The notes beneath the pieces are model-generated. The model was not told the origin of the DNA, ran no database searches, and saw only the letters and a list, made by a program, of their open reading frames with translations. From Clostridia bacterium (GTDB taxonomy: Bacteria > Bacillota > Clostridia > Christensenellales > CAG-917): a stretch of 64,000 nucleotides of DNA. The stretch lies in NCBI GenBank assembly GCA_017553325.1, contig JAFZMH010000007.1:32751-96750 (forward strand), written 5' to 3'. A program made the position numbers and the translations under genes. This document shows, in pieces, positions 3,430 through 61,690 of the stretch (the stretch's first letter is position 1; each line of letters starts with the position of its first letter).

Positions 3430-3461
3430 AAAACCGCGAGGAAATATCCTCGCGGTTTTTA
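3430..3461. terminator. Bidirectional rho-independent terminator
   Basis: ccgcgagga-aata-tcctcgcgg (9-bp stem), A-run before and T5 after. Lies between convergent genes ending at 3423(+) and 3486(-). Confidence 0.8.
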
Positions 3462-8947: not shown

Positions 8948-10096
8948 TTATTTTTTCAGATTTTCAACGAGTTCCCTTATCTTTTGCGACGGGTCGAGAA
9001 GATTTGAAAGCGACTCGTTGAAGTTTGCCGCCGCGATGATGTAAGAGATGTATTTTGAAAGATCCGCTTCAACAAACCAATCGCACTCTTTAAGCTCGGG
9101 AATACGATAGGTCAAATTCGTTGAAAGTACGGCGTCAAACACGCCCTCTTTGTAGGCTTGATTGAATTTGTCAACGCCTTCGGTAAACAGTGCGAACGTC
9201 GCCGCAAGGAAAACTCTTTGAGCACCCTTCTCCTTGATTTCTCTTGCGAGTTTCAAGATTGAGTCGCCAGTTGCAATCATATCGTCCGCGACGAAAACGT
9301 CCATGCCCATAACGGGACTGCCGATATATTCGTGCGCGACAATCGGGTTTCTGCCGTTCACAATCGTGGAGTAATCGCGACGCTTATAGAACATACCGAG
9401 GTCGAGCCCCAAAACCGACGCGTAGAAAACGTTTCTCGCCATTGCGCCTTCGTCAGGTGAAATAACCATAAGGTTATTTTTGTCAAGGCTGATGTCCGGG
9501 AATTTTCTCACGAGCGATTTGAGAATCTGATAGTGCGCGAAATAGTTGTCGAAGCCCATGAGCGGGACTGCGTTTTGCACTCTTGGGTCGTGCGCGTCGA
9601 AGGTGACGATGTCGCTGACGCCCATCGCTTGAAGCTCTTGAAGCATCATTGCGCAATCGAGAGATTCTCTCGCGTTTCTTCTGTGCTGACGTCCGCCGTA
9701 AAGCATCGGCATAATGACCGTGATGCGATAAGGCTTGCCCGTGCAGGAGCAGATAATTCTCTTGAGGTTTGCAAAATGCTCGTCGGGTGTGAGCGGAATT
9801 TGCTCGCCCATAAGAGTATACTTCACTCCGTGGTTGCCAGGATCGCACACGATGTAGAGGTCCTTGCCCCTCACCGTCTCGTAGATAATGCCCTTCGCGT
9901 CGCCGTTTGTAAATCTCGGGCAGGCGGCGTTCAAAATAAACGTGTCTTTTTGAAGTCTCTTGCCAAGATGCGATTCTTTGTAGAGCGTGATGAGACGTTT
10001 GTCAATAAGTTGTGTAAGTTCTTCCGCTCCCGGGGTAGCGATGAGCGCTATCGGAGCACTTTGAATTTCGCCGAAAACCGAAAAATCAGGTGTCAT
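8948..10096 (-). CDS. prs: Ribose-phosphate pyrophosphokinase family protein (long form)
   Basis: 382 aa. VTFDAHDPRVQN, ISPDEGAMARN, PRPP-binding loop VFVADDMIATGDS. Confidence 0.8.
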   Translation of the reverse strand: MTPDFSVFGEIQSAPIALIATPGAEELTQLIDKRLITLYKESHLGKRLQKDTFILNAACPRFTNGDAKGIIYETVRGKDLYIVCDPGNHGVKYTLMGEQIPLTPDEHFANLKRIICSCTGKPYRITVIMPMLYGGRQHRRNARESLDCAMMLQELQAMGVSDIVTFDAHDPRVQNAVPLMGFDNYFAHYQILKSLVRKFPDISLDKNNLMVISPDEGAMARNVFYASVLGLDLGMFYKRRDYSTIVNGRNPIVAHEYIGSPVMGMDVFVADDMIATGDSILKLAREIKEKGAQRVFLAATFALFTEGVDKFNQAYKEGVFDAVLSTNLTYRIPELKECDWFVEADLSKYISYIIAAANFNESLSNLLDPSQKIRELVENLKK

Positions 10097-14973: not shown

Positions 14974-15002
14974 AAAACCGCACTCGTCGAGTGCGGTTTT
15001 TC
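14974..15002. terminator. Bidirectional rho-independent terminator
   Basis: aaaaccgcactc-gtc-gagtgcggtttt between convergent genes (14964 + / 15017 -). Confidence 0.85.
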
Positions 15003-22833: not shown

Positions 22834-22912
22834 ACATTCACAATATTTATTAAATATTTAAGATATTTTAAAATTCAACTCTACCGGATTAAACTTAATT
22901 AATTATTTGGGT

Positions 22913-22973
22913 GCGATTGTTTGTATGAGTTTCGAGGCAGAATGCTCTAACAAAGAAAACCGCCAAACAGCGC
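22913..22973 (+). repeat. AYGAG-core structured intergenic element, copy A (short form)
   Basis: Closing helix tgtttg (22918-23) / caaaca (22964-69), extended by gcg/cgc. Core ATGAG-TTTC-GAGGCAG-[gca gaa tgc hairpin]-CTCTAACAAA-GAAA-ACCGC. Ends 3 nt before the ftsY stop codon (22976-78). Confidence 0.75.
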
Positions 22974-22975
22974 GC

Positions 22976-23869
22976 TCAAAGCAATGCGTTAATGAAATCC
23001 GTCGCGTCAAACGGAATTAAATCATCAATTTTCTCGCCAACACCTACGTATACGACGGGAAGCCCAATCTCGTCGCTGATTGCAAGCACGACGCCGCCCT
23101 TTGCGGTTCCGTCGAGTTTTGTGAGGATAATGCCGTCCGTTTCAATGTCTTCCGAGAAGATTTGCGCCTGCGACACCGCGTTTTGTCCCGTCGTGGCGTC
23201 GAGCACGAGATACTTCCTGAAATCTGCCTCGGGCAATTCTCTGTCCACGACGCGACAAATCTTTTGAAGTTCCGCCATAAGGTTCTTCTTGTTGTGAAGT
23301 CTGCCTGCGGTGTCCACCAAAATCACGTCGTTTCCTCTCGCCTTTGCGCTGGATATTGCGTCGAATACGACAGCCGCGGGGTCCGCGCCCTCGTTGTGGC
23401 GTATAACTCTGACGCCCGCTCGCTCGCCCCAAACTTCAAGCTGTTCGCTTGCAGCCGCTCTAAACGTGTCCGCGGCAGCCACGACGACGCTCTTGCCCTG
23501 CTCTTTGAACATGTGTGCAAGTTTGCCGACAGCCGTAGTCTTGCCCACGCCGTTGACGCCGGACAGGAGTATAACGAGCGGATATTCGTATTCCGGCACG
23601 TCGTAGTCGATGTCCTCAATCATGATTTTGCGGAGCAATTCTTTTGCGTCTTCCGGCTTTTTTATCTTCTCCTTGAAGGCTCTGTCTTTGAGTTCCTCGA
23701 TGAGGTTTTCAGTCGCCGTAAGCCCGACGTCCGCCGTCAAAAGTGCTTCCTCTAAACTCTCGTAAAACTCGTCGTCAAGTTCGCGAGCGGAAAATGCAAA
23801 GAACAACTTTTTTGAAAAAGCGTCCTTCGTCTTTTTTATACCTTCTGCAATTTTTTTGAAAAAACCCAT
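22976..23869 (-). CDS. ftsY: Signal recognition particle receptor FtsY
   Basis: 297 aa. GVNGVGKTT, DTAGR, TKLDG SRP-GTPase motifs. Confidence 0.96.
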   Translation of the reverse strand: MGFFKKIAEGIKKTKDAFSKKLFFAFSARELDDEFYESLEEALLTADVGLTATENLIEELKDRAFKEKIKKPEDAKELLRKIMIEDIDYDVPEYEYPLVILLSGVNGVGKTTAVGKLAHMFKEQGKSVVVAAADTFRAAASEQLEVWGERAGVRVIRHNEGADPAAVVFDAISSAKARGNDVILVDTAGRLHNKKNLMAELQKICRVVDRELPEADFRKYLVLDATTGQNAVSQAQIFSEDIETDGIILTKLDGTAKGGVVLAISDEIGLPVVYVGVGEKIDDLIPFDATDFINALL

Positions 23870-28731: not shown

Positions 28732-28805
28732 GCGAGCGTAGTTTAGTGGCAAAATAAAAGCTTCCCAAGCTTTGGTTGTGGGTTCGATTCCCATCGCTCG
28801 CTCCA
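28732..28805 (+). tRNA. tRNA-Gly (anticodon CCC)
   Basis: Cloverleaf by hand: acceptor GCGAGCG/CGCTCGC, D arm GTTT-AGTGGCA-AAAT, anticodon stem AAAGC/GCTTT with loop TTCCCAA, T arm GTGGG-TTCGATT-CCCAT, encoded CCA. Confidence 0.9.
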
Positions 28806-30979: not shown

Positions 30980-31807
30980 TCAATATTCTTTGACGTTTGG
31001 AATGACTTTCTCTATGAGCAAACCGTAGCGCAAATCGGCTTTTTCTTTTAAAGAAACTTCAATGCAATCCTCCGTAAAAGCAACAGCGGATTTCATTGCG
31101 TTTTCCGCTGACGCGCGTTGCATAAGTTTGCCGATGAACGCGGAAGAAAAGACGTCGCCTGCGCCGTGGATGTTTTGGTCGAAATGTCTGTCGTAGGCAA
31201 ACGAAATACGGCCTGCCTTGCTGAGAAGCCCCGCGCCCTGCTGACTGCGATTGATAACTCCCGAAAGAAGCACGGATTTGTAGCCTTTCGATTTCAAAAT
31301 ATTGAGTATCATACGCGCGTTTTGCTCGTTTGGCTCGAGGTCAAGGTTGAGTTCGGCAAGCATTTTACCTTCGGTAAAGTTGGGCATAACAATATCCGCA
31401 TACTTTTTGCAGAGGTCGATGATGCGCTCTTTGTAGGCTTCGTCGAAAATCGCGTAGAGTTTGCCACTCTCCGCCATTGCGGGGTCGAACGCGATGAGCG
31501 TGCCTTCCTTCTTTTCCTGCTTTAGAATTTGCTCGGTGGCGTCTATGATTGCCTGTGACCCCAAGAAACCGACGTAGACGCAATCAAACTTAATACCGAG
31601 TTTTTTCCAATGTTTGTATGCGGGCAACATATTGTCGCAAAGGTCGATAAAAGTATAGCCTTTTATGCCGGCGGTTTGCGTTGACAAAAGCGCAGTTGGA
31701 AGTCCAACCGGATATGAGCCAAACGCTGACAAAATCGGGATGCCCGCCGTGAGCGAGCAATTGCCGATTGATGAATAATCTTCAATAACCAAAACACGTT
31801 TTTCCAT
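30980..31807 (-). CDS. Pyridoxal/pyridoxamine kinase family protein (ribokinase-like fold)
   Basis: Start trimmed to ATG 31807 (MEKRVLVIEDYSSIGNCSL). C-terminal GAGDVFSSAF anion-hole motif. Confidence 0.75.
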   Translation of the reverse strand: MEKRVLVIEDYSSIGNCSLTAGIPILSAFGSYPVGLPTALLSTQTAGIKGYTFIDLCDNMLPAYKHWKKLGIKFDCVYVGFLGSQAIIDATEQILKQEKKEGTLIAFDPAMAESGKLYAIFDEAYKERIIDLCKKYADIVMPNFTEGKMLAELNLDLEPNEQNARMILNILKSKGYKSVLLSGVINRSQQGAGLLSKAGRISFAYDRHFDQNIHGAGDVFSSAFIGKLMQRASAENAMKSAVAFTEDCIEVSLKEKADLRYGLLIEKVIPNVKEY

Positions 31808-31942: not shown

Positions 31943-32208
31943 GCTGTGCTAGACGGGGAGCTTGCGGTGCCCTGTAAACTACAATCCGCAATAGTAGTGT
32001 CGAACGCCAATCGAGGCTTTTGTTATGGTTGGTTGCGCATAGCAAGGAGTGATGATAGCAAGGTCCCGTGCAATGTCATACTGCGAACCGTGTCAGAGCT
32101 TGACCGCAGCAGCACTAAACAGGCGTTGGCGTGTGCCACGGGGAAACTTTGAAGGAGCCGCCTACTATGTTTCCACTTCGGTTTCAAACGTCGGAGTTGG
32201 TGCACAGT
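31943..32208 (+). ncRNA. ffs: Signal recognition particle RNA, large Bacillus-type (scRNA with Alu domain)
   Basis: The 5' GTGCTAGACGGGGAGCTTGCGGTGCCCTGTAAACTACAATCCGC matches the B. subtilis scRNA Alu-domain start (GUGCUAGACGGGGAGGUAGCGGUGCCCUGUACCUGCAAUCCGC). The S-domain block is GAACCGTGTCAGAGCTTGACCGCAGCAGCAC, then GTGCCACGGGG. The 3' GGTGCACAG pairs with the 5' CTGTGC. Confidence 0.85.
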
Positions 32209-42369: not shown

Positions 42370-42440
42370 GCTAAATGAATTATACTATTTAACAACAAAT
42401 GAGCGCGATATTTGGATGAAGAGCGCAAATAATAATGTTT

Positions 42441-42563
42441 AAAACCGCTCGGGAGTGATGAGATGCTAGGAAGGACGCTTTGTTTGAAAAGAGCGTACTT
42501 TTGCGTACGTGATTGCACTAAAAAAGCGACCTAACAACGCAGGTCGCTCTCTCGTGCGGTTTT
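42441..42563 (+). repeat. AYGAG-core structured intergenic element, copy E (long form)
   Basis: Closing helix aaaaccgc-t-cgggag (42441-55) / ctctcg-t-gcggtttt (42549-63). Core ATGAG-ATGC-TAGGAAG. Outer helix ggacgcttt/aaagcgacc. Apical hairpin gcgtac-ttttgc-gtacgt. 3' core CTAACAAC-GCAG-GTCGC. The 3' arm overlaps the stop codon (42562-64) of the reductase gene. Confidence 0.8.
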
Positions 42564-44670
42564 ATTTAATCTTGTGGATGGCAACGTCATACGCCGCTCT
42601 AGTAGCATCCGCAATACGCCCTATCTTGCTTGCGTCGCCCACGACGAAGAGTCTTTCAAACTTGCCATCAAACTCTTTTGCGAGATTGTTGACGGGACGT
42701 GCGCCAAGCGACAGCACCACTGCGTCGAAATCATAGTGCTCGGGTGCGCCTGTGGACACCGGCTTTCTGTTCTTGTCAAGTTTGACGGGTTCAAGCACTA
42801 CGCCTGTCTCATCAATCGAGTTGAGTTTGTGAGAAAGAATATATTCCGTCCCCTTCGCGTTGAGTTTGGGGAGAACGTCGTCGAGGTGCTGGAACCAAGT
42901 GCCGGGGGCGACTCTGTCCGCCATTTCGACGATTGTCACCTTGTTGCCGTATTCGACGAGCATTTCGGCGGTTTCAAGTCCCGTCATACCCGAGCCGATA
43001 AGAGCGACGTTTTTGTTTTCGAGATACTTTTCACCGCTCAAAATCTGCGTCGTCGTGTAGACGTTTTCGCGGTTGACGCCCTCGATTGAACGCGGACGCA
43101 CTGCGCACGCGCCGGTTGCAATGATGACTGCGTACGGGTTGAGCGCTTGTACGGTTTCAAGGTCCGCCTTTACGCCGAGACGAATTTCCGCGCCGACTTT
43201 TTCCGCATTGGTCTTCATATCGACGAAGCACCAGCCGAGTTTCTCCTTCTTTGGCGGTTTGTTGGCGAGTTGAATTTGTCCGCCGACTTCCTTTGCCTGT
43301 TCGAGAACGATAGGTTTGAACCCGCGTCTACCAAGCATTTCCGCCGCCGTGAGACCCGCAACGCCTGCGCCTACGACGACGACAGTTCTGCCCTCGCCGT
43401 CCTTGACGAGATTGTCAAATTCTCTTTCGCGCCCGACAGTCGGGTTGACGGAGCAATAGCCGTGGTCGCCGTGATAGGCGTTGTCCTGCATGGATTGTAT
43501 GCAGTAGAGACAGCAGATGCAACGCTTGATTTCGTCCTCTCTGCCCTCTTGCGCCTTTTCCGCCCAGTGCGGGTCAGCGATGTGCGGACGCCCGAGCGAC
43601 ACGAAGTCTTGTACGCCCTCTTCAAGTTGTTTTTCCGCTTGTTCGGGAGTTCTTATGAGGTTAGCGGCTATGACCGGAATGTTCACTTCCTTCTTGACCG
43701 CCGCCGCGAGATACTTTCTCCAGCCGCATTCAAAACTCGTTGGCTCTAGCCAATAGTTGAACGTGTCGTAGCTTGCGGACGAGACGTCAATTGCGTCCAC
43801 GCCCATATCGGCGATTGCCTTCGCATATTTGACGCCCTCTTCCATCGTGTAGCCTTTGCCGAGTTTGCCTATCTTCTCGTAGAATTCGTCAATGGTGAGA
43901 CGGACGACGATTGGATAATCTCCGCATTCCTTTCTTATGCCCTCGATGATTTCGCGCACGAACCGCAAGCGGTTTTCAAAACTTCCGCCGTATTCGTCAT
44001 TTCTGTGGTTTGTATTCGGGCTCAAAAATTGTTGGATGAGGTAGCCGTGCGTGCCGTGGAGTTCAACGCCGTCCACGCCTGCTTTTTTGCAGCGCACCGC
44101 ACCGTCTATATACTGTTGAATGAGTTGTTTGACTTCCTTGTGAGAGAGCGCTCTGACCGCGGTGTTCGCATAATATGCGGGTTCGCAAGCGGAGGCGGAG
44201 ACAGCCTTCTTGGAAATGTGATGCTTCTCAAGGAATGGCGCGAGTTTCGGAGCCATACTGAACAGCATCTTCGGGAACTTCTTGCAAATTCTCGTGCACG
44301 CGATGCAGAGAGGCACGGTGCCGATTGCAAGACCGACGTTTTGACGGCCCGGGTGATGCAGTTGCACGAAGAGTTTTGCGCCGTGTCTGTGAATACGATT
44401 TGCAAATTCCGTTAGTCCCGGTATTTGATAATCGTGGCTCACGCCGAGTTGCGCAAACGCCGCCGCGCCCGTCTTGTCGTTGATACGGGTAATCTCGGTC
44501 ATGATGAGTCCCGTTCCGCCCTTCGCGCGCTCCTCATAGTAGTCCATGAGTTGCTCGGTTGTGCATCCGTCGAATTGTCCGAAGCCCATGAGCATCGGGG
44601 ACATAACTATACGGTTTTTGATCTCGCAGTTGCCTATTTTCATAGGACTGAACAACATTTTGTATTCCAT
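42562..44670 (-). CDS. OYE-type FMN domain fused to FAD/NAD(P) oxidoreductase (2-enoate reductase / 2,4-dienoyl-CoA reductase family)
   Basis: Start trimmed to ATG 44670 (MEYKMLFSPMKIGN). LHHPGRQ, Fe-S motif CICCLYC...C, Rossmann VVVVGAGVAGLTAAE and ALIGSGMTGLE. Confidence 0.8.
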   Translation of the reverse strand: MEYKMLFSPMKIGNCEIKNRIVMSPMLMGFGQFDGCTTEQLMDYYEERAKGGTGLIMTEITRINDKTGAAAFAQLGVSHDYQIPGLTEFANRIHRHGAKLFVQLHHPGRQNVGLAIGTVPLCIACTRICKKFPKMLFSMAPKLAPFLEKHHISKKAVSASACEPAYYANTAVRALSHKEVKQLIQQYIDGAVRCKKAGVDGVELHGTHGYLIQQFLSPNTNHRNDEYGGSFENRLRFVREIIEGIRKECGDYPIVVRLTIDEFYEKIGKLGKGYTMEEGVKYAKAIADMGVDAIDVSSASYDTFNYWLEPTSFECGWRKYLAAAVKKEVNIPVIAANLIRTPEQAEKQLEEGVQDFVSLGRPHIADPHWAEKAQEGREDEIKRCICCLYCIQSMQDNAYHGDHGYCSVNPTVGREREFDNLVKDGEGRTVVVVGAGVAGLTAAEMLGRRGFKPIVLEQAKEVGGQIQLANKPPKKEKLGWCFVDMKTNAEKVGAEIRLGVKADLETVQALNPYAVIIATGACAVRPRSIEGVNRENVYTTTQILSGEKYLENKNVALIGSGMTGLETAEMLVEYGNKVTIVEMADRVAPGTWFQHLDDVLPKLNAKGTEYILSHKLNSIDETGVVLEPVKLDKNRKPVSTGAPEHYDFDAVVLSLGARPVNNLAKEFDGKFERLFVVGDASKIGRIADATRAAYDVAIHKIK

Positions 44671-44756
44671 AATTCTCCCCAAATTATTTTTTTAATACGT
44701 AAATATTTTAGCACTTTGAAATAGATATTTCAAGAGGGGTATAGCATTTTTTGTAA

Positions 44757-44780
44757 GAAAAAAAGGCACTTATGTGCCTT
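44757..44780 (-). terminator. Rho-independent terminator downstream of folD and element D
   Basis: On the minus strand: aaggcac-ataa-gtgcctt followed by T7. Confidence 0.8.
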
Positions 44781-44803
44781 CTATGGTTGCATTTTGTTAA
44801 AAT

Positions 44804-44918
44804 CGTTTGATTTGGACGAGATGAGAGAAAGCGTGCTTTTTGCGAAAGCTAAGTGTACAAAGGCGTACGCGGTGCTTGAGAACAAAGTGCGCTGACAAAG
44901 CAGTCGCTAAATCAAGCG
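44804..44918 (+). repeat. AYGAG-core structured intergenic element, copy D (long form)
   Basis: 12-bp closing helix cgtttgatttgg (44804-15) / ctaaatcaagcg (44907-18, two G-T pairs). Core ACGAG-ATGA-GAGAAAG. Outer helix agcgtgcttt/aaagtgcgct. Apical hairpin gtgtac-aaaggc-gtacgc. 3' core CTGACAAA-GCAG-TCGC. The 3' arm is the folD stop codon plus its last three codons. Confidence 0.8.
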
Positions 44919-45764
44919 ATTTTGGATTTTATAAGCCTTAACCGTGTTTTGAAGGAGCATAGTCACCGTCATAGGACCTACGCCACCCGGGACGGGGGTT
45001 ATATAACTGCACTTTGGCGCGACGTTTTCAAAATCAACGTCTCCGCAGAGTTTGCCGTTTTCGTCTCTGTCCATGCCGACGTCCACGACGACTGCGCCCT
45101 CTTTGACCATATCGGCTTTGAGGAATTTCGCCTTGCCGATTGCCACGCAAACTATGTCAGCCTGACGGGTGATTTCGCCGAGGTTTTTCGTGCGACTGTG
45201 GCAAATCGTCACCGTTGCGTTTTTGTCGAGAAGAAGTTGAGCAAGAGGTTTGCCGACGAGGTTGGAGCGTCCCACCACGACAGCGTTTTTGCCTTCAAGT
45301 TCGATATTGTAGTGCTCAAGTATGCGCATAATGCCAAACGGCGTGCAAGCGATTAGGCACTCGCGTCCCGTCCAAAGTCTGCCCTTTTGCACGTAGTGGC
45401 AACCGTCGACGTCCTTTGCGGGGTCGATGAGGTCGAGAAGCGGGTTTTCGTCGAGATGCTTAGGGAGCGGAAGTTGCAAGATTATGCCGGAAACCTCAGG
45501 GTTCTCGTTTAAAGACTTTATCGTCTCAGCGACTTGCTCTGCCGTGCTGTCTCCCGGGAGCGTGCACATAAACGACTTGACGCCGACTTCTTCGCATCCT
45601 TTCATTTTGTTGCGCACGTACACGAGCGACGCGGGGTTGTCGCCGACGAGAATAACCGCAAGCCCTACGGGCTTGTCAAGGTTCATAGCCTTGATTTCAT
45701 CGACTTCTGCTTTGATATTTTGTCTCGTCACGCTTGCAACGAGTTTTCCGTCTAGAATTGTCAT
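44907..45764 (-). CDS. folD: Bifunctional methylenetetrahydrofolate dehydrogenase/cyclohydrolase
   Basis: 285 aa. ILVGDNPAS.VYV, GIILQLPLP, VVVGRSNLVGKP, PVPGGVGPMT motifs. Confidence 0.95.
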   Translation of the reverse strand: MTILDGKLVASVTRQNIKAEVDEIKAMNLDKPVGLAVILVGDNPASLVYVRNKMKGCEEVGVKSFMCTLPGDSTAEQVAETIKSLNENPEVSGIILQLPLPKHLDENPLLDLIDPAKDVDGCHYVQKGRLWTGRECLIACTPFGIMRILEHYNIELEGKNAVVVGRSNLVGKPLAQLLLDKNATVTICHSRTKNLGEITRQADIVCVAIGKAKFLKADMVKEGAVVVDVGMDRDENGKLCGDVDFENVAPKCSYITPVPGGVGPMTVTMLLQNTVKAYKIQNRLI

Positions 45765-45777
45765 GGGGTTCTCCTGA

Positions 45778-47280
45778 TTATTTAATAGTTGTTGTGTTCT
45801 TTTGAATTACGTCGTGAGCGCCGCCTTCAACAATAGATGTTGCGGAGACGACTGTCATCTTGGCGACTTTGTGGAGTTGCGGAATCGTGATTGCGCCGCA
45901 GTTGCACATTGTTGATTTGACCTTGTAAAGGCTCTTGTTGACGTTGTCTTTCAATGGTCCTGCGTACGGGACGTAGCTGTCCACGCCCTCCTCAAAACTG
46001 AGACCGCTCTTTCCTCCGAGGTCGTATCTCTGCCAGTTGCGCGCGCGGTTGGAACCTTCGCCCCAATACTCTTTGACGTAGTTGCCGTTGATGTTGAGTT
46101 TGTTCGTCGGAGACTCGTCGAAGCGCGCGAAATATCTGCCGAGCATCATAAAGTCGCTACCCATAGCGAGCGCGAGCGTCATGTGATAGTCCTGCACGAT
46201 GCCGCCGTCCGAGCATACGGGAACGTAGATACCCGTCTTTTCGTAATACTCGTCTCTCGCCTTTGCGACCTCCATAACCGCAGTCGCCTGACCTCTGCCT
46301 ATGCCCTTTTGTTCGCGGGTAATACAGATAGAGCCACCGCCGATACCTACCTTGACGAAATCTGCGCCACATTCTGCAAGGAACAGAAAACCTTCTCTGT
46401 CAACGACGTTTCCTGCGCCAACCTTGACTTTATCACCGTATTTTGCACGGATAAAGTCCAAAGTCTTCTTTTGCCAAATCGTATAGCCCTCGCTCGAGTC
46501 TATGCAGAGCACGTCCGCGCCAGCCTCGATGAGTGCGGGAACGCGCTTTTCATAGTCAAGTGTGTTTATGCCCGCGCCGACCATATATCTCTTTTGGTCG
46601 TCGAGGAGTTCGTTCGGGTTCTCCTTGTGAGCGTCGTAGTCCTTGCGGAAGATGATATAAAGAAGGTTGCCGTTGTCGTCGATAATCGGGAGTTGGTTGA
46701 GTTTATGGTCCCAAATGATGTCGTTTGCTTCGGCAAGCGTGGTATTCTTGTTGCCGACGACGAGTTTTTCAAACGGAGTCATAAAGTCTGCGACTTTTGT
46801 GTCCGGCGACATTCGACTGACGCGGTAATCGCGGCTTGTGACGATGCCGACGAGCTTGCCGTTGGACGTGCCGTCCAAAGTGACCGCAATAGTGTTGTGT
46901 CCCTTGGTTTCGACAAGGTACAAGACGTCGGCGAGAGTGTCCGTCGGTTTGACGTTGCTGTCGGACACGACGAAACCCGCTTTGTAGTTCTTTACCCTGC
47001 GCACCATAGCCGCCTCGTTTTCAATCGTCTGCGAGCCGTAGATAAATGAAATTCCGCCTTCTTTTGCCAGCGCGATTGCAAGCGTATCGTTGGAAACGGA
47101 CTGCATAATTGCGGACACGAGCGGAATGTTAAGCTCGATTGCCGGCTTCTCTCCCTTTTTAAACTTCGTAAGCGGAGTTTTGAGCGACACGTTTGCGGGA
47201 ATGCAGTTCTCGTCCGTATAGCCCGGAATGAGCAAATATTCGCTGAAAGTTCTCGATGGTTCTTCAAAATACTTTGCCAT
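45778..47280 (-). CDS. guaB: IMP dehydrogenase family protein (with CBS pair)
   Basis: Start trimmed to ATG 47280 ([22 protein letters not shown]). Catalytic loop [17 protein letters not shown] region, 500 aa. Confidence 0.8.
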
Positions 47281-47310
47281 AATACTCTCCAAAAAAGTTA
47301 AATTTTTTAT

Positions 47311-47339
47311 ATAATACCTATTTTGTCGCAGTTTGTCAA
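47311..47339 (-). promoter_or_regulatory. guaB-folD promoter (TTGACA-17-TATTAT)
   Basis: On the minus strand, TTGACA is at 47339-34 and TATTAT at 47316-11. Confidence 0.65.
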
Positions 47340-47384
47340 AAGAAAACGTGCAAATAATCGACATTTTTGAAATAAATTTCAAAT

Positions 47385-50767: not shown

Positions 50768-50801
50768 TTCTGTCTCCTAATGTTGTTTTCTAAAATCCTG
50801 A

Positions 50802-50907
50802 TTATTTGTATGAGTTGCAAGGAACCGTGCTTTTGACCGCAATGAGCGTACTAAGCCGTACGTGATTTGTGGGCAAAAGTGCGTTGACACAGCAAATCGC
50901 CAAATAA
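50802..50907 (+). repeat. AYGAG-core structured intergenic element, copy C (long form)
   Basis: Closing helix ttatttg (50802-08) / caaataa (50901-07). Core ATGAG-TTGC-AAGGAAC. Outer helix cgtgcttttg (50826-35) / caaaagtgcg (50874-83) with tandem G-T pairs. Apical hairpin gcgtac-taagcc-gtacgt. 3' core TTGACACA-GCAA-ATCGC. Lies between the pta stop (50917) and the ackA RBS. Confidence 0.8.
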
Positions 50908-50916
50908 AATAGCACG

Positions 50917-51915
50917 TTATTTAACTGACTGAAGTGCTGTTATGGCCGCTACAGCCGCTATATCTTCCGCAACACAACCACGGCTTAAATCGTTGACCGG
51001 AAGTGCAAGACCTTGCATAATCGGTCCGATTGCCATGCAGTTGCCAAAGCGTTGGGCAAGTTTGTAGCCGATGTTGCCTGCGTCGAGGTTCGGGAATACG
51101 AGGACGTTTGCTTGTCCTGCGACGGGGCTGTCGCCCGCTTTTTGCTTTGCTACGCTGTCAACCAAGGACGCGTCGAGTTGAAGTTCGCCGTCCACGCAGA
51201 TTTCCGGATGTTGTTCGCGTACCTTGTTGTAGGCGGAACGAACCTTCTCGACAGATTCGTGATTTGCGCTTCCCTTCGTGGAGAACGAGAGCATTGCAAT
51301 CTTCGGCTCCATCTCGCAGATCTTCTTCGCGGAGTCCGCCGCGGCAACGACTATGTCTTTGAGTTGGTCGTCCGTCGGGTACGGAATGACCGCGCAATCG
51401 GAGAAAATGTATGCCGGATACTTCTTGTATTTGAATTCCTCGGGAGGAACCATAACGAAGCAACTGGAAACCGAACTGATGCCGGGAGCCGCCTTTACGA
51501 CTTGGAATGCCGCACGGGAGACGTCTGCGGAACTGAATACCGCGCCGCCCACGACGCCGTCTACGTCACCGCGCTTCAAAGCGACGCACGCAAAGAACAT
51601 ATTGTTTTGGGTGACGAGTTGTCTCGCCTGCTCTTCCGTCATGCCCTTCGCTTTGCGAAGTTCAAACAAAGTGTTTGCATATTCGTCGACGTGTTTGCTC
51701 GTCTTCGGATCGTCAAAAGCAACGCCCGTCAAATCGACTTCCGGGAATTTTGCCTTGATTTCCTCTTCGTTGCCGATGAGAACGACTTTGCAGACGCCTT
51801 TCTTTGTGAGGATTTCCGCTGCCTTTGCGGCTCTTACGTCAAATCCTTCCGCGAGTGCGATGGTCTTGCCGAGTAAACTTGCTCTTTTCATAAGGTTTTC
51901 AACAAATTCTGTCAT
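50917..51915 (-). CDS. pta: Phosphate acetyltransferase
   Basis: Start trimmed to ATG 51915 (MTEFVENLMKRA). 332 aa PTA_PTB domain (ALAEGFDVRAAKAA, GGAVFSSADVSR, SFSTKGSA). Confidence 0.93.
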   Translation of the reverse strand: MTEFVENLMKRASLLGKTIALAEGFDVRAAKAAEILTKKGVCKVVLIGNEEEIKAKFPEVDLTGVAFDDPKTSKHVDEYANTLFELRKAKGMTEEQARQLVTQNNMFFACVALKRGDVDGVVGGAVFSSADVSRAAFQVVKAAPGISSVSSCFVMVPPEEFKYKKYPAYIFSDCAVIPYPTDDQLKDIVVAAADSAKKICEMEPKIAMLSFSTKGSANHESVEKVRSAYNKVREQHPEICVDGELQLDASLVDSVAKQKAGDSPVAGQANVLVFPNLDAGNIGYKLAQRFGNCMAIGPIMQGLALPVNDLSRGCVAEDIAAVAAITALQSVK

Positions 51916-55653: not shown

Positions 55654-55701
55654 TTTTTACCATTTTTTTATCTAATCTATTTTTATATTAAACCCACAAA
55701 A

Positions 55702-55773
55702 CTGCTTGATTGAGATGAGTTTCGAGGAAGGTGCGCACGCAAACCTGACAAGGAAAACCGCTCAATCAAACTG
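55702..55773 (+). repeat. AYGAG-core structured intergenic element, copy B (short form)
   Basis: 9-bp closing helix ttgattgag (55706-14) / ctcaatcaa (55761-69). Core ATGAG-TTTC-GAGGAAG-[aggt...acct hairpin]-CTGACAAG-GAAA-ACCGC. The 3' arm contains the methyltransferase stop codon (55766-68). Confidence 0.78.
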
Positions 55774-56629
55774 TTTTGAACGTAGCAAAGGCAGTGCAAC
55801 CCTGCGGAAGAATCAGTCCTTCTTCAGTCTGTAAACCGATTTCGTCCGCGTCAATAACCGCGTTATTCGGCAAGGCGAGTTTCAATATGTTTGCCATAAC
55901 CGTAGGTTGCAGTCCCGTCGTATAACTGTTGAGGCACACGAACAGCGGATTGTCGCCAAGAAGCGATGATACAAGATTCATAAGTTCGCTTATTCCCTCT
56001 TCGATCTTCCACTTTTCACCGTTTGGACCTCTGCCGAAGGAGGGCGGGTCGAGGATTATCGCGTCGTAGTGTTTGCCACGTCTGATTTCTCTTTGGCAGA
56101 ATTTGAAGCAGTCGTCGACGATATATCTCATCTCTCTGTCTTCAAGTCCCGACAACCTGACGTTTTCGCCCGCGCGCTCGACCATCGCCTTCGCGCTGTC
56201 AACGTGGCACACGCTCGCACCCGCTTTAAGGCAGGCGACGGACGCCGCGCCCGTATAGCCGAACAGGTTGAGGACGCTGATTTTACGCCCCGCGGTTTCA
56301 ATGAGTTTCATCATTCTGTCCCAGTTGACAGCCTGCTCGGGGAAAAGTCCCGTATGTTTGAACCCCATGAGTTTGAGGGAGAACGTAAGGTCGCGCCAGC
56401 CGAGTTTAAACTCCGTATTGATGGGTTTTTGCCATTTCCACGCGCCACCGCCGGAAGAGCTGCGTTCGTACACCGCCGAGATGTTTTTGTTGCTTCTCAG
56501 CGGAGTTTTTGCGTGCCAAATTACCTGCGGGTCGGGACGCAGTAAAACGAGATCTCCCCATCTCTCGAGTTTTTCGCCGTCGCCGGTTGCGATGACGGAG
56601 TATTCTTTCCAATCGGGTGCGATTTTCAT
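55766..56629 (-). CDS. Class I SAM-dependent (rRNA large-subunit RlmI/RlmK-like) methyltransferase
   Basis: 287 aa. LNLFGYTGAASVA SAM-binding motif and ILDPPSFGRG. Confidence 0.75.
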   Translation of the reverse strand: MKIAPDWKEYSVIATGDGEKLERWGDLVLLRPDPQVIWHAKTPLRSNKNISAVYERSSSGGGAWKWQKPINTEFKLGWRDLTFSLKLMGFKHTGLFPEQAVNWDRMMKLIETAGRKISVLNLFGYTGAASVACLKAGASVCHVDSAKAMVERAGENVRLSGLEDREMRYIVDDCFKFCQREIRRGKHYDAIILDPPSFGRGPNGEKWKIEEGISELMNLVSSLLGDNPLFVCLNSYTTGLQPTVMANILKLALPNNAVIDADEIGLQTEEGLILPQGCTAFATFKTV

Positions 56630-61613: not shown

Positions 61614-61690
61614 GGAGGCATGGCTCAGTTGGTTAGAGCACACGGTTCACATCCGTGAGGTCGTTGGTTCGAGTCCAACTGTCTCCACCA
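61614..61690 (+). tRNA. tRNA-Val (anticodon CAC)
   Basis: Cloverleaf by hand: acceptor GGAGGCA/TGTCTCC, D arm GCTC...GAGC, anticodon stem CACGG/CCGTG with loop TTCACAT, T arm GTTGG-TTCGAGT-CCAAC, encoded CCA. Confidence 0.88.

Follow-up and report, generated by a model that had tools for sequence, protein, structure and literature searches.

A Family of Structured Elements at the Stop Codons of Opposite-Strand Genes in Clostridia and Other Bacteria

Introduction

Several described systems place small folding sequences at the ends of bacterial genes, and here we compare them with a structured, non-coding element that occurs in five copies (A to E) in a 64,000-nt stretch of DNA from a Clostridia bacterium (contig JAFZMH010000007.1; hereafter the window) and in further genomes and metagenomes. 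In attC sites, structure is conserved over sequence, the strand antisense to the upstream open reading frame (ORF) is the one that folds, the site lies at the stop codon, and there are conserved unpaired bases; attC sites carry the core sites R'' (RYYYAAC) and R' (GTTRRRY), and they occur in arrays of promoterless cassettes next to intI. The element described here shares the antisense folding strand, the stop-codon position, a variable terminal structure, and conserved unpaired bases; in contrast, it has no R''/R' core sites (no GTTRRRY on the gene-sense strand ends), and its neighbours are ftsY, pta-ackA, folD, rpmF-plsX, and rlmI in conserved synteny.

REP/BIME sequences are high-copy extragenic hairpins at gene ends that lie in tandem or inverted arrays, are recognised strand-specifically as single-stranded DNA (ssDNA), and have roles in termination and mRNA stability. 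REPs are 20–40 nt long with a GTAG-type head, REPINs are near-symmetric doublets, and the REPs of each species are matched to its own RAYT. Our element likewise takes the form of gene-end hairpins and of tandem or inverted arrays, but it is 60–215 nt long, has an asymmetric core that is the same across phyla, and lacks a GTAG head; no RAYT-like ORF was noticed in the collected loci, which are partial genomes. ERIC/IRU and Correia elements are imperfect intergenic palindromes of ~100–150 bp with orientation-dependent effects on mRNA, conserved terminal inverted repeats (TIRs), a TA-type target duplication, and a lineage-restricted distribution—they are not known to follow an antisense, stop-abutting rule, whereas our element is found across phyla and abuts stop codons in antisense orientation. 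In the PATEs derived from IS200/IS605, the folding top strand lies on the lagging-strand template and orientation tracks replication; in our element orientation tracks the neighbouring gene of each copy.

The pneumococcal BOX and SPRITE are small, non-coding, interspersed hairpin repeats that are enriched just downstream of genes, with an orientation that mirrors coding bias; BOX has a modular build in which the internal units vary in number, and it supplies the stop codon of 36 genes, and SPRITE, found near coding-sequence 3' ends, resembles a Rho-independent terminator (Croucher et al. 2011, PMC3049150). BOX, RUP, and SPRITE are known from a few streptococci only and are defined by conserved termini; more broadly, BOX, SPRITE, ERIC, Correia, and REP/BIME are folding repeats that cluster at gene ends, supply stops, and behave in an orientation-dependent way (PMC3049150). 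Our element is also a small, folding, modular, non-coding interspersed repeat at gene ends, and like interspersed repeats it shows presence/absence polymorphism and many copies per genome; however, its termini vary, what Clostridia, Saccharibacteria, and Proteobacteria have in common is a conserved, asymmetric internal core, and its folding strand is antisense to the adjacent gene. Copy E and most copies in two genomes, RUG767 and UBA1260, also resemble bidirectional intrinsic terminators, with an A-tract, a GC-rich stem base, and a T-tract after the stop codon, but the hairpin (60–215 nt) contains conserved internal loops that termination does not need. Non-coding interspersed repeats at gene ends are known as a kind; what sets this family apart is the asymmetric internal core, the cross-phylum spread, and the antisense selected strand.

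Five Copies in the Window

The original prediction, made from the window sequence alone, described five intergenic loci with a common architecture, and all five are present as read (Table 1). A covariance model built from these five copies (R1), scored at all window positions, gives them 44–116 bits and everything else at most 15 bits; a second model built from 44 copies elsewhere (R2) returns the same five, all on the + strand, with no sixth and a lowest score of 37.1 bits (A). We call the strand that carries the fold, + in the window, the element strand. Both halves of the core are enriched in the window: AYGAG-N5-AGRMA has 6 matches (1.15 expected by chance) and YTRACAMNGMARNYCGC has 5 (0.47 expected), and the combined two-half pattern has zero expectation in shuffles. 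A candidate sixth copy (31671-31687, − strand) lies in the interior of a coding region, has no helices, and was rejected as a chance match.

The names given to the neighbouring − strand genes (ftsY, methyltransferase, pta, folD, and OYE reductase) are supported by Pfam matches to PTA_PTB, THF_DHG_CYH, Oxidored_FMN, and Methyltrans_SAM; ftsY was identified through an SRP54-family orthologue beside smc.

Table 1. Element copies, parts of copy E, and adjoining features in the window (R1 and R2, covariance model scores; fold, stability of the + strand vs. the − strand; A2, alignment of 44 copies).
Feature	Position	Strand	Details
Copy E, whole, long form	42440..42564	+	R1 115.6 bits; R2 113.1 bits; fold -48.6 vs. 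-38.1 kcal/mol
E, P1 arms	within 42440..42564	+	TAAAACCGCTCGGGAGT / CTCTCGTGCGGTTTTA
E, complement of the OYE-reductase stop (TTA)	42562-42564		Final bases of the E 3' arm
E, 5' core	42457..42473	+	GATGAG (bulged A, U.G wobble, G-C), P2 5' strand ATGC, loop strand TAGGAAG (holds the G-A of the predicted tandem G.A pair); A2 columns 18-22 and 30-33, invariant or near-invariant
E, P3 module, variable	42474..42530	+	Outer helix and apical hairpin GCGTAC-N6-GTACGT (42493-42510); pairs covary in A2 (columns 34-40/90-96 and 57-62/69-74)
E, 3' core	42531..42547	+	Loop strand CTAACAAC, P2 3' strand GCAG, junction GTCGC; A2 columns 96-112, with T97, C100, C110, G111, and C112 invariant or nearly so
Copy D, long form	44799..44923	+	R1 106.3 bits; R2 95.1 bits; fold -44.9 vs. 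-23.3 kcal/mol; stop d=-11; 3' arm CTAAATCAAGCG includes the folD stop (CTA, i.e. TAG) and the last three folD codons
Separate terminator after D (hairpin plus T-run)	44782-44761	−	
Copy C, long form	50793..50917	+	R1 102.7 bits; R2 81.5 bits; fold -37.7 vs. -26.9 kcal/mol; between pta (stop 50917-50919) and ackA (start 50767)
Copy B, short form	55697..55778	+	R1 61.6 bits; R2 58.9 bits; 18-bp P1; methyltransferase stop (TCA, 55766-55768) within the 3' arm
Copy A, short form	22907..22979	+	R1 43.9 bits; R2 37.1 bits; 2 nt from the ftsY stop (TCA, 22976-22978)

A Fold Selected on One Strand

The fold was assessed on a MAFFT alignment of 44 copies (A2), with a consensus from RNAalifold. The consensus has 37 pairs, and 29 of them show two-sided changes; 93.0% of the paired cells can pair, against 75.1 +/- 0.6% in column shuffles and 27–43% when partners are slid, and the covariation score is 0.49 against 0.17 in shuffles (0/500 shuffles reach any of these measures). 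The element strand is the more stable one in 42/47 copies of the genome set, by 9.4 kcal/mol on average, and in 31/34 metagenome copies (mean 10.1 kcal/mol), or 73/81 in all, and in the window + is well ahead of − for C, D, and E. Minimum-energy folds contain 149 G.U pairs against 14 A.C 1x1 mismatches. Individual columns follow neutral paths through G-C, G.U, and A-U with essentially no A.C (columns 57-74: GU 20, GC 11, AU 10, AC 0; columns 37-93: CG 19, UG 13, UA 2), although the copies share descent, so that these counts are not counts of independent events. Even so, neither the conserved U.G wobble nor the purine-rich loops would make sense on the complementary strand. The fold is thus selected, and on one strand, as had been proposed from five copies.

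The element is a single long, irregular hairpin rod of ~60–215 nt. It is closed by a stem, P1, of 7–23 bp; the closing helices were first given as shorter than they are, and in B the stem is the 18-bp CAAAACTGCTTGATTGAG / CTCAATCAAACTGTTTTG. The usual form in high-copy genomes is AAAACCGC followed by 8–9 nt, the core, a further 8–9 nt, and GCGGTTTT, which resembles a bidirectional intrinsic terminator; recurring arm subfamilies are TCAGTTTAG, GTGAGTGAG, GATATTTGG, TCAATTTTG, and TCAGGTTGG. Two early ideas about P1 change in this light. The suggestion that E is a host terminator split by an element is unsupported, as its AAAACCGC...GCGGTTTT stem is the commonest family arm type in other genomes; and the unrelated arm sequences of the window copies, put down to covariation, do covary in pairing but partly reflect different source subfamilies whose arms travel with the element.

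Inside P1 the junction consists of G18-C112, a bulged A19, U20.G111 (42/44 copies), G21-C110, and A22-U109 (numbers are A2 columns), followed by a 2x2 purine mismatch. P2 then has 3–4 covarying base pairs (UGC/GCA, UUUC/GAAA, UAAC/GUUA, UGAC/GUCA)—the pairing between the 4-nt segments, first noted in A, B, and C, amounts in D and E to only 3 bp plus a purine mismatch. Beyond P2 lies a conserved, purine-rich internal loop, NAGGAAG opposite CUGACAAN, in which the brackets G30-C100 and A33-U97 are invariant, G31-A32 faces G98-A99, and N28-A29 and A101-A102-N103 are unpaired; G31-A32 and G98-A99 are predicted to form tandem G.A pairs.

P3 is a replaceable module. The short form is a hairpin of 6–14 nt (window A and B and the metagenome copy L074; collected loci are numbered L001 upwards), and most copies carry a ~60-nt arm ending in GYGUAC-N6-GUACRY. 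The difference between the apical hairpins of the long window copies, taken earlier for a double compensatory change, is in fact two one-sided wobble changes in different pairs (G.U to G-C, and C-G to U.G). Three RUG767 copies have an extra-long, branched form of ~215 nt, produced by a conserved insert of ~95 nt in the loop's 5' strand (P3 ~150 nt).

The ~95-nt module of these copies has the layout GGCGCGACGCGTTAAGC-hairpin-GTAGCCMAAGCGRACRAGGTGG-hairpin-ACGCCGAAG (L018 1630-1840; L001 ~1640-1850; L025 ~1200-1400). It also stands alone in larger, unannotated, non-coding stretches ending in ...GGAARRGGGGGTRTTGYATTTAG (L052 ~9560-9990, +; L015 ~100-260, +), one of which is a 530-nt rpmF-plsX spacer. 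Rfam 15 gave no hit on the L052 and L015 module regions, and the module may be a separate large non-coding RNA (ncRNA).

The string GAUGAG...CUGA invites comparison with a hammerhead, a box C/D motif, or a kink-turn; these were rejected because the motifs are not opposite one another, the fold is an unbranched rod, and the kink-turn geometry fails. A kink-turn has a C-stem, a 3-nt bulge, and tandem sheared G.A pairs, and its other strand has no unpaired bases; here G31.A99 and A32.G98 are flanked by the invariant G30-C100, and the opposite strand has 3–4 extra bases (A101, A102, N103).

Occurrence in Other Genomes and in Metagenomes

A search beyond the window had been proposed, and the pattern scan and model together recovered >80 further copies. 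A strict two-part pattern was run over 185,579 species-representative genomes; the source genome is not among these, and the window's own proteins were matched only on metagenome contigs. The scan returned 40 loci, of which 30 are true copies and 10 are chance matches (~17 were expected by chance). True copies come from the uncultured rumen Clostridiales metagenome-assembled genome (MAG) RUG767 (~20 loci), "Christensenella sp." UBA1260 (7 loci), Clostridia RGIG4097, two Saccharibacteria MAGs, and an Oxalobacter MAG that has two copies of an identical 128-bp repeat. Over these loci R1 gives 49 hits, many of them in tandem, and the RUG767 loci hold at least 30 copies within ~200 kb. An independent scan of JGI (Joint Genome Institute) metagenomes added 34 copies at 21 loci, groundwater and other non-rumen contigs included; among the viral contigs and the phage and plasmid records scanned there were only chance or 32-nt palindrome matches. 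The core is common to at least three phyla (Clostridia, Saccharibacteria, Proteobacteria). The original prediction was therefore too narrow in scope, as the family extends beyond the source genome and beyond Clostridia, but its central claims were essentially right and survive on ~80 independent copies.

These copies bear on the simplest alternative, namely that ordinary host terminators or palindromes look alike by chance or composition and that the core is an artefact of pattern picking. Many copies do show an A-tract, a stem, and a T-tract directly after a stop codon, and plain AAACCGC...GCGGTTT terminators are found in the window. However, motif counts are far above those in shuffles, the asymmetric loops are kept across phyla, the covariation statistics are as given above, and window copies A to D have no free T-run; the 10 chance loci have no closing helix (P1), P2, or P3, whereas the 30 true loci have all three, and hits obtained by the model only argue against a search-pattern artefact. 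We regard this alternative as excluded.

The family was also described as unrecognised, and this stands. Rfam 15 (with families that include hammerhead, twister-sister, hairpin, hatchet, pistol, RAGATH, and riboswitches) gave no hit at the gathering threshold for the window copies or for the long and extra-long copies (L018/L001/L025), and the permissive searches (E<=10 or E<=1) gave chance matches only, such as RAGATH-25 at 10.7 bits vs. 49 and a miRNA at 19.5 vs. 90; in the window no match at E<=10 overlaps any of the five copies. A full-text literature search found no description of the element, only general repeat literature.

The Oxalobacter repeat is 128 bp long because ~42 nt upstream of the hairpin are included (L013 3715-4935; L017 2393-3055); one copy adjoins a hicAB toxin-antitoxin pair, and the other, in sense orientation, precedes yceD-(rpmF)-plsX, a gene neighbourhood that also holds the L052 copy. 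Where two or three copies form a tandem array, spaced 0–15 nt apart (L082 7782-8155; L015 4728-4975; L038 1406-1650; L034 5795-6036), only the copy closest to the gene reaches the stop codon. In copy L015b the 5' arm belongs to one subfamily and the 3' arm, which is truncated, to another, a mixture that suggests recombination among copies.

Placement at the Ends of Opposite-Strand Genes

That the 3' end of each window copy falls at the stop codon of an opposite-strand gene holds in the window and in further copies. In the window the stop is 2 nt (A) or 6 nt (C) from the element or lies inside the 3' arm (B, D, E). Overall, the 3' arm ends in, or a few nt from, such a stop in ~70% of copies: most copies of the genome set have an opposite-strand ORF stop -20 to +12 nt from the 3' end, and 22/34 metagenome copies sit at one, the non-rumen L081, L076, and L070 included, with the remainder being mostly outer members of tandem arrays. 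A typical end is gcggtt followed by TTA, so that the gene strand reads TAA-AACCGC.

Stops recur at three positions—on the outer edge of P1, immediately behind GTCGC (as C|TA), and 15–18 nt inside—which look like three reading frames entering the element. With three frames running into it, the element often supplies the stop codon and sometimes a tail of 3–5 residues; C-terminal tails supplied in this way are seen at window B and D, L034b, and L018. The mirror arrangement, with the 5' arm at the stop of a same-strand gene, has no robust case among the copies examined. About 5/47 copies are in sense orientation, 7–25 nt upstream of a start codon, and one copy is 6 nt from a tRNA. This last copy (L072 2012-2212, non-rumen metagenome) is on the same strand as its tRNA-Lys gene, so that its element strand would be co-transcribed.

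Orientation tracks the neighbouring gene and not the replichore. Single 8-kb loci (L025, L030, L034, L008) contain both orientations, with each copy obeying its own neighbour, and a replication-based orientation is thereby ruled out. Within the window, the C-rich strand is the one that folds (GC skew -0.01 to -0.06).

This placement brings to mind a site for ssDNA recombination or transposition, whose folded bottom strand an enzyme such as a tyrosine recombinase or a Y1/HUH transposase would read, in the manner of attC, REP/RAYT, or the IS200/IS605-derived PATE. Features in common with attC are a site at or over the stop, good folding of only that strand which is antisense to the upstream ORF, conserved unpaired bases in a covarying hairpin, and a central module of variable length; tandem and inverted pairs resemble BIMEs. 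Nevertheless, we consider such a site quite improbable. The top-strand ends are TAAAACCGC... and ...GCGGTTTT or the arms of other subfamilies, with neither RYYYAAC/GTTRRRY core sites nor a REP head of the GTAG type; housekeeping genes in conserved synteny, not cassettes, adjoin the copies; no integrase or transposase was seen near the copies; and orientation follows the gene and not replication, unlike IS200/IS605, the folding strand being the leading-strand template for co-directional genes.

The gene-end position also raises the matter of termination. Copy E has a GC-rich stem followed by a T-run, as do most copies from RUG767, UBA1260, and the metagenomes, where the end reads ...GCGGTTTT(A) and the A-tract is symmetric; A, C, and D do not, and no other obvious terminator was seen for the gene of E. 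AT-rich boxes beside P1 look like remnants of A-tracts. Two plain terminators in the window, AAACCGCGAGGAAATATCCTCGCGGTTT (3431-3458) and AAACCGCACTCGTCGAGTGCGGTTT (14975-14999), lie 8–10 nt past stop codons. The plain AAACCGC...GCGGTTT terminators have the same outer-arm sequence as the element family, and could be what remains, as solo arms, once the core is lost.

Turnover and Constraint at Orthologous Sites

Copies come and go at orthologous sites. The plsX region was compared in relatives with 85–87% and 71–73% PlsX identity. The pta-ackA site (C) is filled in the window only and empty in L048, L052, L054, L059, and L061, where the spacers are 11–58 nt. The site after the methyltransferase gene (B) is filled in the window (short form) and in L048 (long form) and empty in L052 and L054; the site after ftsY (A) is filled in the window (short) and in L050 and L061 (long) and empty in L048, L056, and L058; and a site after rpmF is filled in L052 only. 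The short forms A and B therefore occupy sites where relatives carry long forms (at A, a long form or nothing). Presence and absence at orthologous sites show that the family disperses.

Site A offers the most detailed comparison. The empty sequence is ...TTG TTA TAA^TTTGA, and in L050 the filled sequence is ...TTATAA, then the element (TGCGCTATTTTG-core-CAAATATCGCA), then TTATAATTTGA, with the protein end NALL* unchanged—so the arms came with the element. One clean filled/empty pair reads TTATAA[element]TTATAA against TTATAA; since TTATAA is palindromic, a target duplication, an insertion at TTA^TAA, and a deletion between repeats give the same result.

In copies that persist, P1 and the loops stay constant even as neutral sites reach saturation. 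When RUG767 and UBA1260 are compared at the copy upstream of rlmI (L021a vs. L007), P1 and core are ~95% identical, against 47% identity at the 4-fold sites of rlmI, and P3 has diverged with compensation, including GUAC to GAAC/GUUC. Window B and its counterpart in L048 (a relative with 85% PlsX identity) have arms that are ~87–95% identical, against 56% at 4-fold sites, with one compensated A-U to U-A swap; the arms were kept although one copy is short and the other long, and although the P2 helices differ. P1 and the loops are maintained either by selection or by frequent conversion from other copies. The gene that follows the sense-oriented L021 and L007 copies was considered as an associated mobility gene and rejected, as it is rlmI and not a transposase.

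In-place constraint is one of several observations that would suit a functional ncRNA made from the element strand—a cis-antisense RNA or an independent small RNA with a protein-binding or catalytic motif, one per gene 3' end, in which ribozyme activity or the binding of a universal partner would fall to the purine-rich loops with their tandem G.A, U.G wobble, and bulged A. The RNA-type neutral paths and the G.U asymmetry on the element strand point the same way, as do loops conserved across phyla within covarying stems, a periphery that is exchangeable (short, long, extra-long) as in many ribozymes and riboswitches, and sense copies just upstream of genes or a tRNA, which would be transcribed (L021/L007 (rlmI), L030b, L034d, L017, L072). 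On the other hand, no sigma-70-like promoter lies upstream on the + strand at any window copy, and the 5' flanks are not conserved across copies; some copies fill operon spacers, leaving 9–50 nt (L029, window B); insertion polymorphism at housekeeping genes shows no tie to gene function; and no ribozyme or riboswitch model in Rfam 15 matches. Taken together, these points make an ncRNA of this kind somewhat unlikely.

Interpretation

We favour the reading that this is a widespread, uncatalogued family of non-coding, interspersed, structured repeats that is copied via a single-stranded intermediate, with the core as the handle, and retained at stop codons; we would put this at about even odds (roughly 0.5). 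The element would spread non-autonomously through a single-stranded form (RNA or ssDNA) of the element strand, and the conserved core would be recognised by a copying or binding factor. Copies would survive mainly where their position and orientation can be tolerated by a gene or are of use to it: with the stop codon embedded at the base of a strong hairpin, the element may act as a terminator, a 3'-end protector, or an insulator, and the active strand would be kept out of the mRNA.

Several observations weigh against this reading. The intermediate, its partner, and the cause of the orientation bias are parts that we infer. No transposase, reverse transcriptase, or other partner gene adjoins any copy examined, and no ORF-bearing parent element was found in ~1 Mb of collected loci with a permissive pattern, aimed also at half-sites set far apart, whose matches were mostly noise; the same pattern did find three real copies that are truncated or internally deleted. 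There is no consistent target-site duplication: over 61 copies the longest flank repeat is 4.59, against 4.32 +/- 0.13 in mismatched-flank controls, and the filled/empty pairs could equally be deletions between short repeats. In TIR-type miniature inverted-repeat transposable elements, the termini are conserved among copies and match those of a parent insertion sequence, whereas here the arms vary by copy or subfamily and the interior is conserved. Copies are also conserved in place, and this speaks against many of them being just inert insertions. Finally, since window copies A to D have no free T-run and D is followed by a terminator of its own, termination cannot be the general function.

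A bolder reading, which we think unlikely, is that a new class of structured nucleic acid acts opposite mRNAs at gene ends and has the core as its working part. It could take the form of a 'terminator-hopping' element that copies itself via RNA or ssDNA into stop-codon/A-tract sites and is SINE-like or ribozyme-bearing, or that of a widespread motif in cis-antisense RNA by which a universal factor is brought to gene 3' ends. Points in its favour are the strand-specific fold, the cross-phylum core, the antisense stop rule, in-place constraint, a T-run whose length varies at the 3' junction, and copies reduced to the 3' half (no 5'-half-only copies were found).

The element would be among the few small structured elements common to Clostridia, candidate phyla radiation (CPR) bacteria, and Proteobacteria yet missing from Rfam, and its position rule—a stop codon inside the base of a hairpin, with the folding strand antisense to the gene—is unusually strict. 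In rumen and gut genomes it shapes gene ends by supplying stops, short C-terminal tails, and probably terminators, which affects gene calling and the prediction of operons and terminators in largely uncultured lineages. A fold selected on one strand is a direct handle on a strand-specific process at gene 3' ends, candidates for which are mobile-element copying, antisense transcription control, and protein recruitment. The family is also a natural experiment in dispersed repeats becoming host terminators.

Other Features of the Window

The only Rfam 15 matches in the window are a lysine riboswitch (779-945, 76.6 bits), a large bacterial SRP RNA (31944-32207, 150.8 bits), and two tRNAs (28732-28802 and 61614-61687). 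Every relative compared has smc-ftsY after rnc; the window has IMPDH-folD-OYE reductase there (42562-47382; compared with L048, L052, and L054), and smc-ftsY is ~20 kb away from rnc. Copies D and E flank the OYE-reductase gene within this rearranged block.

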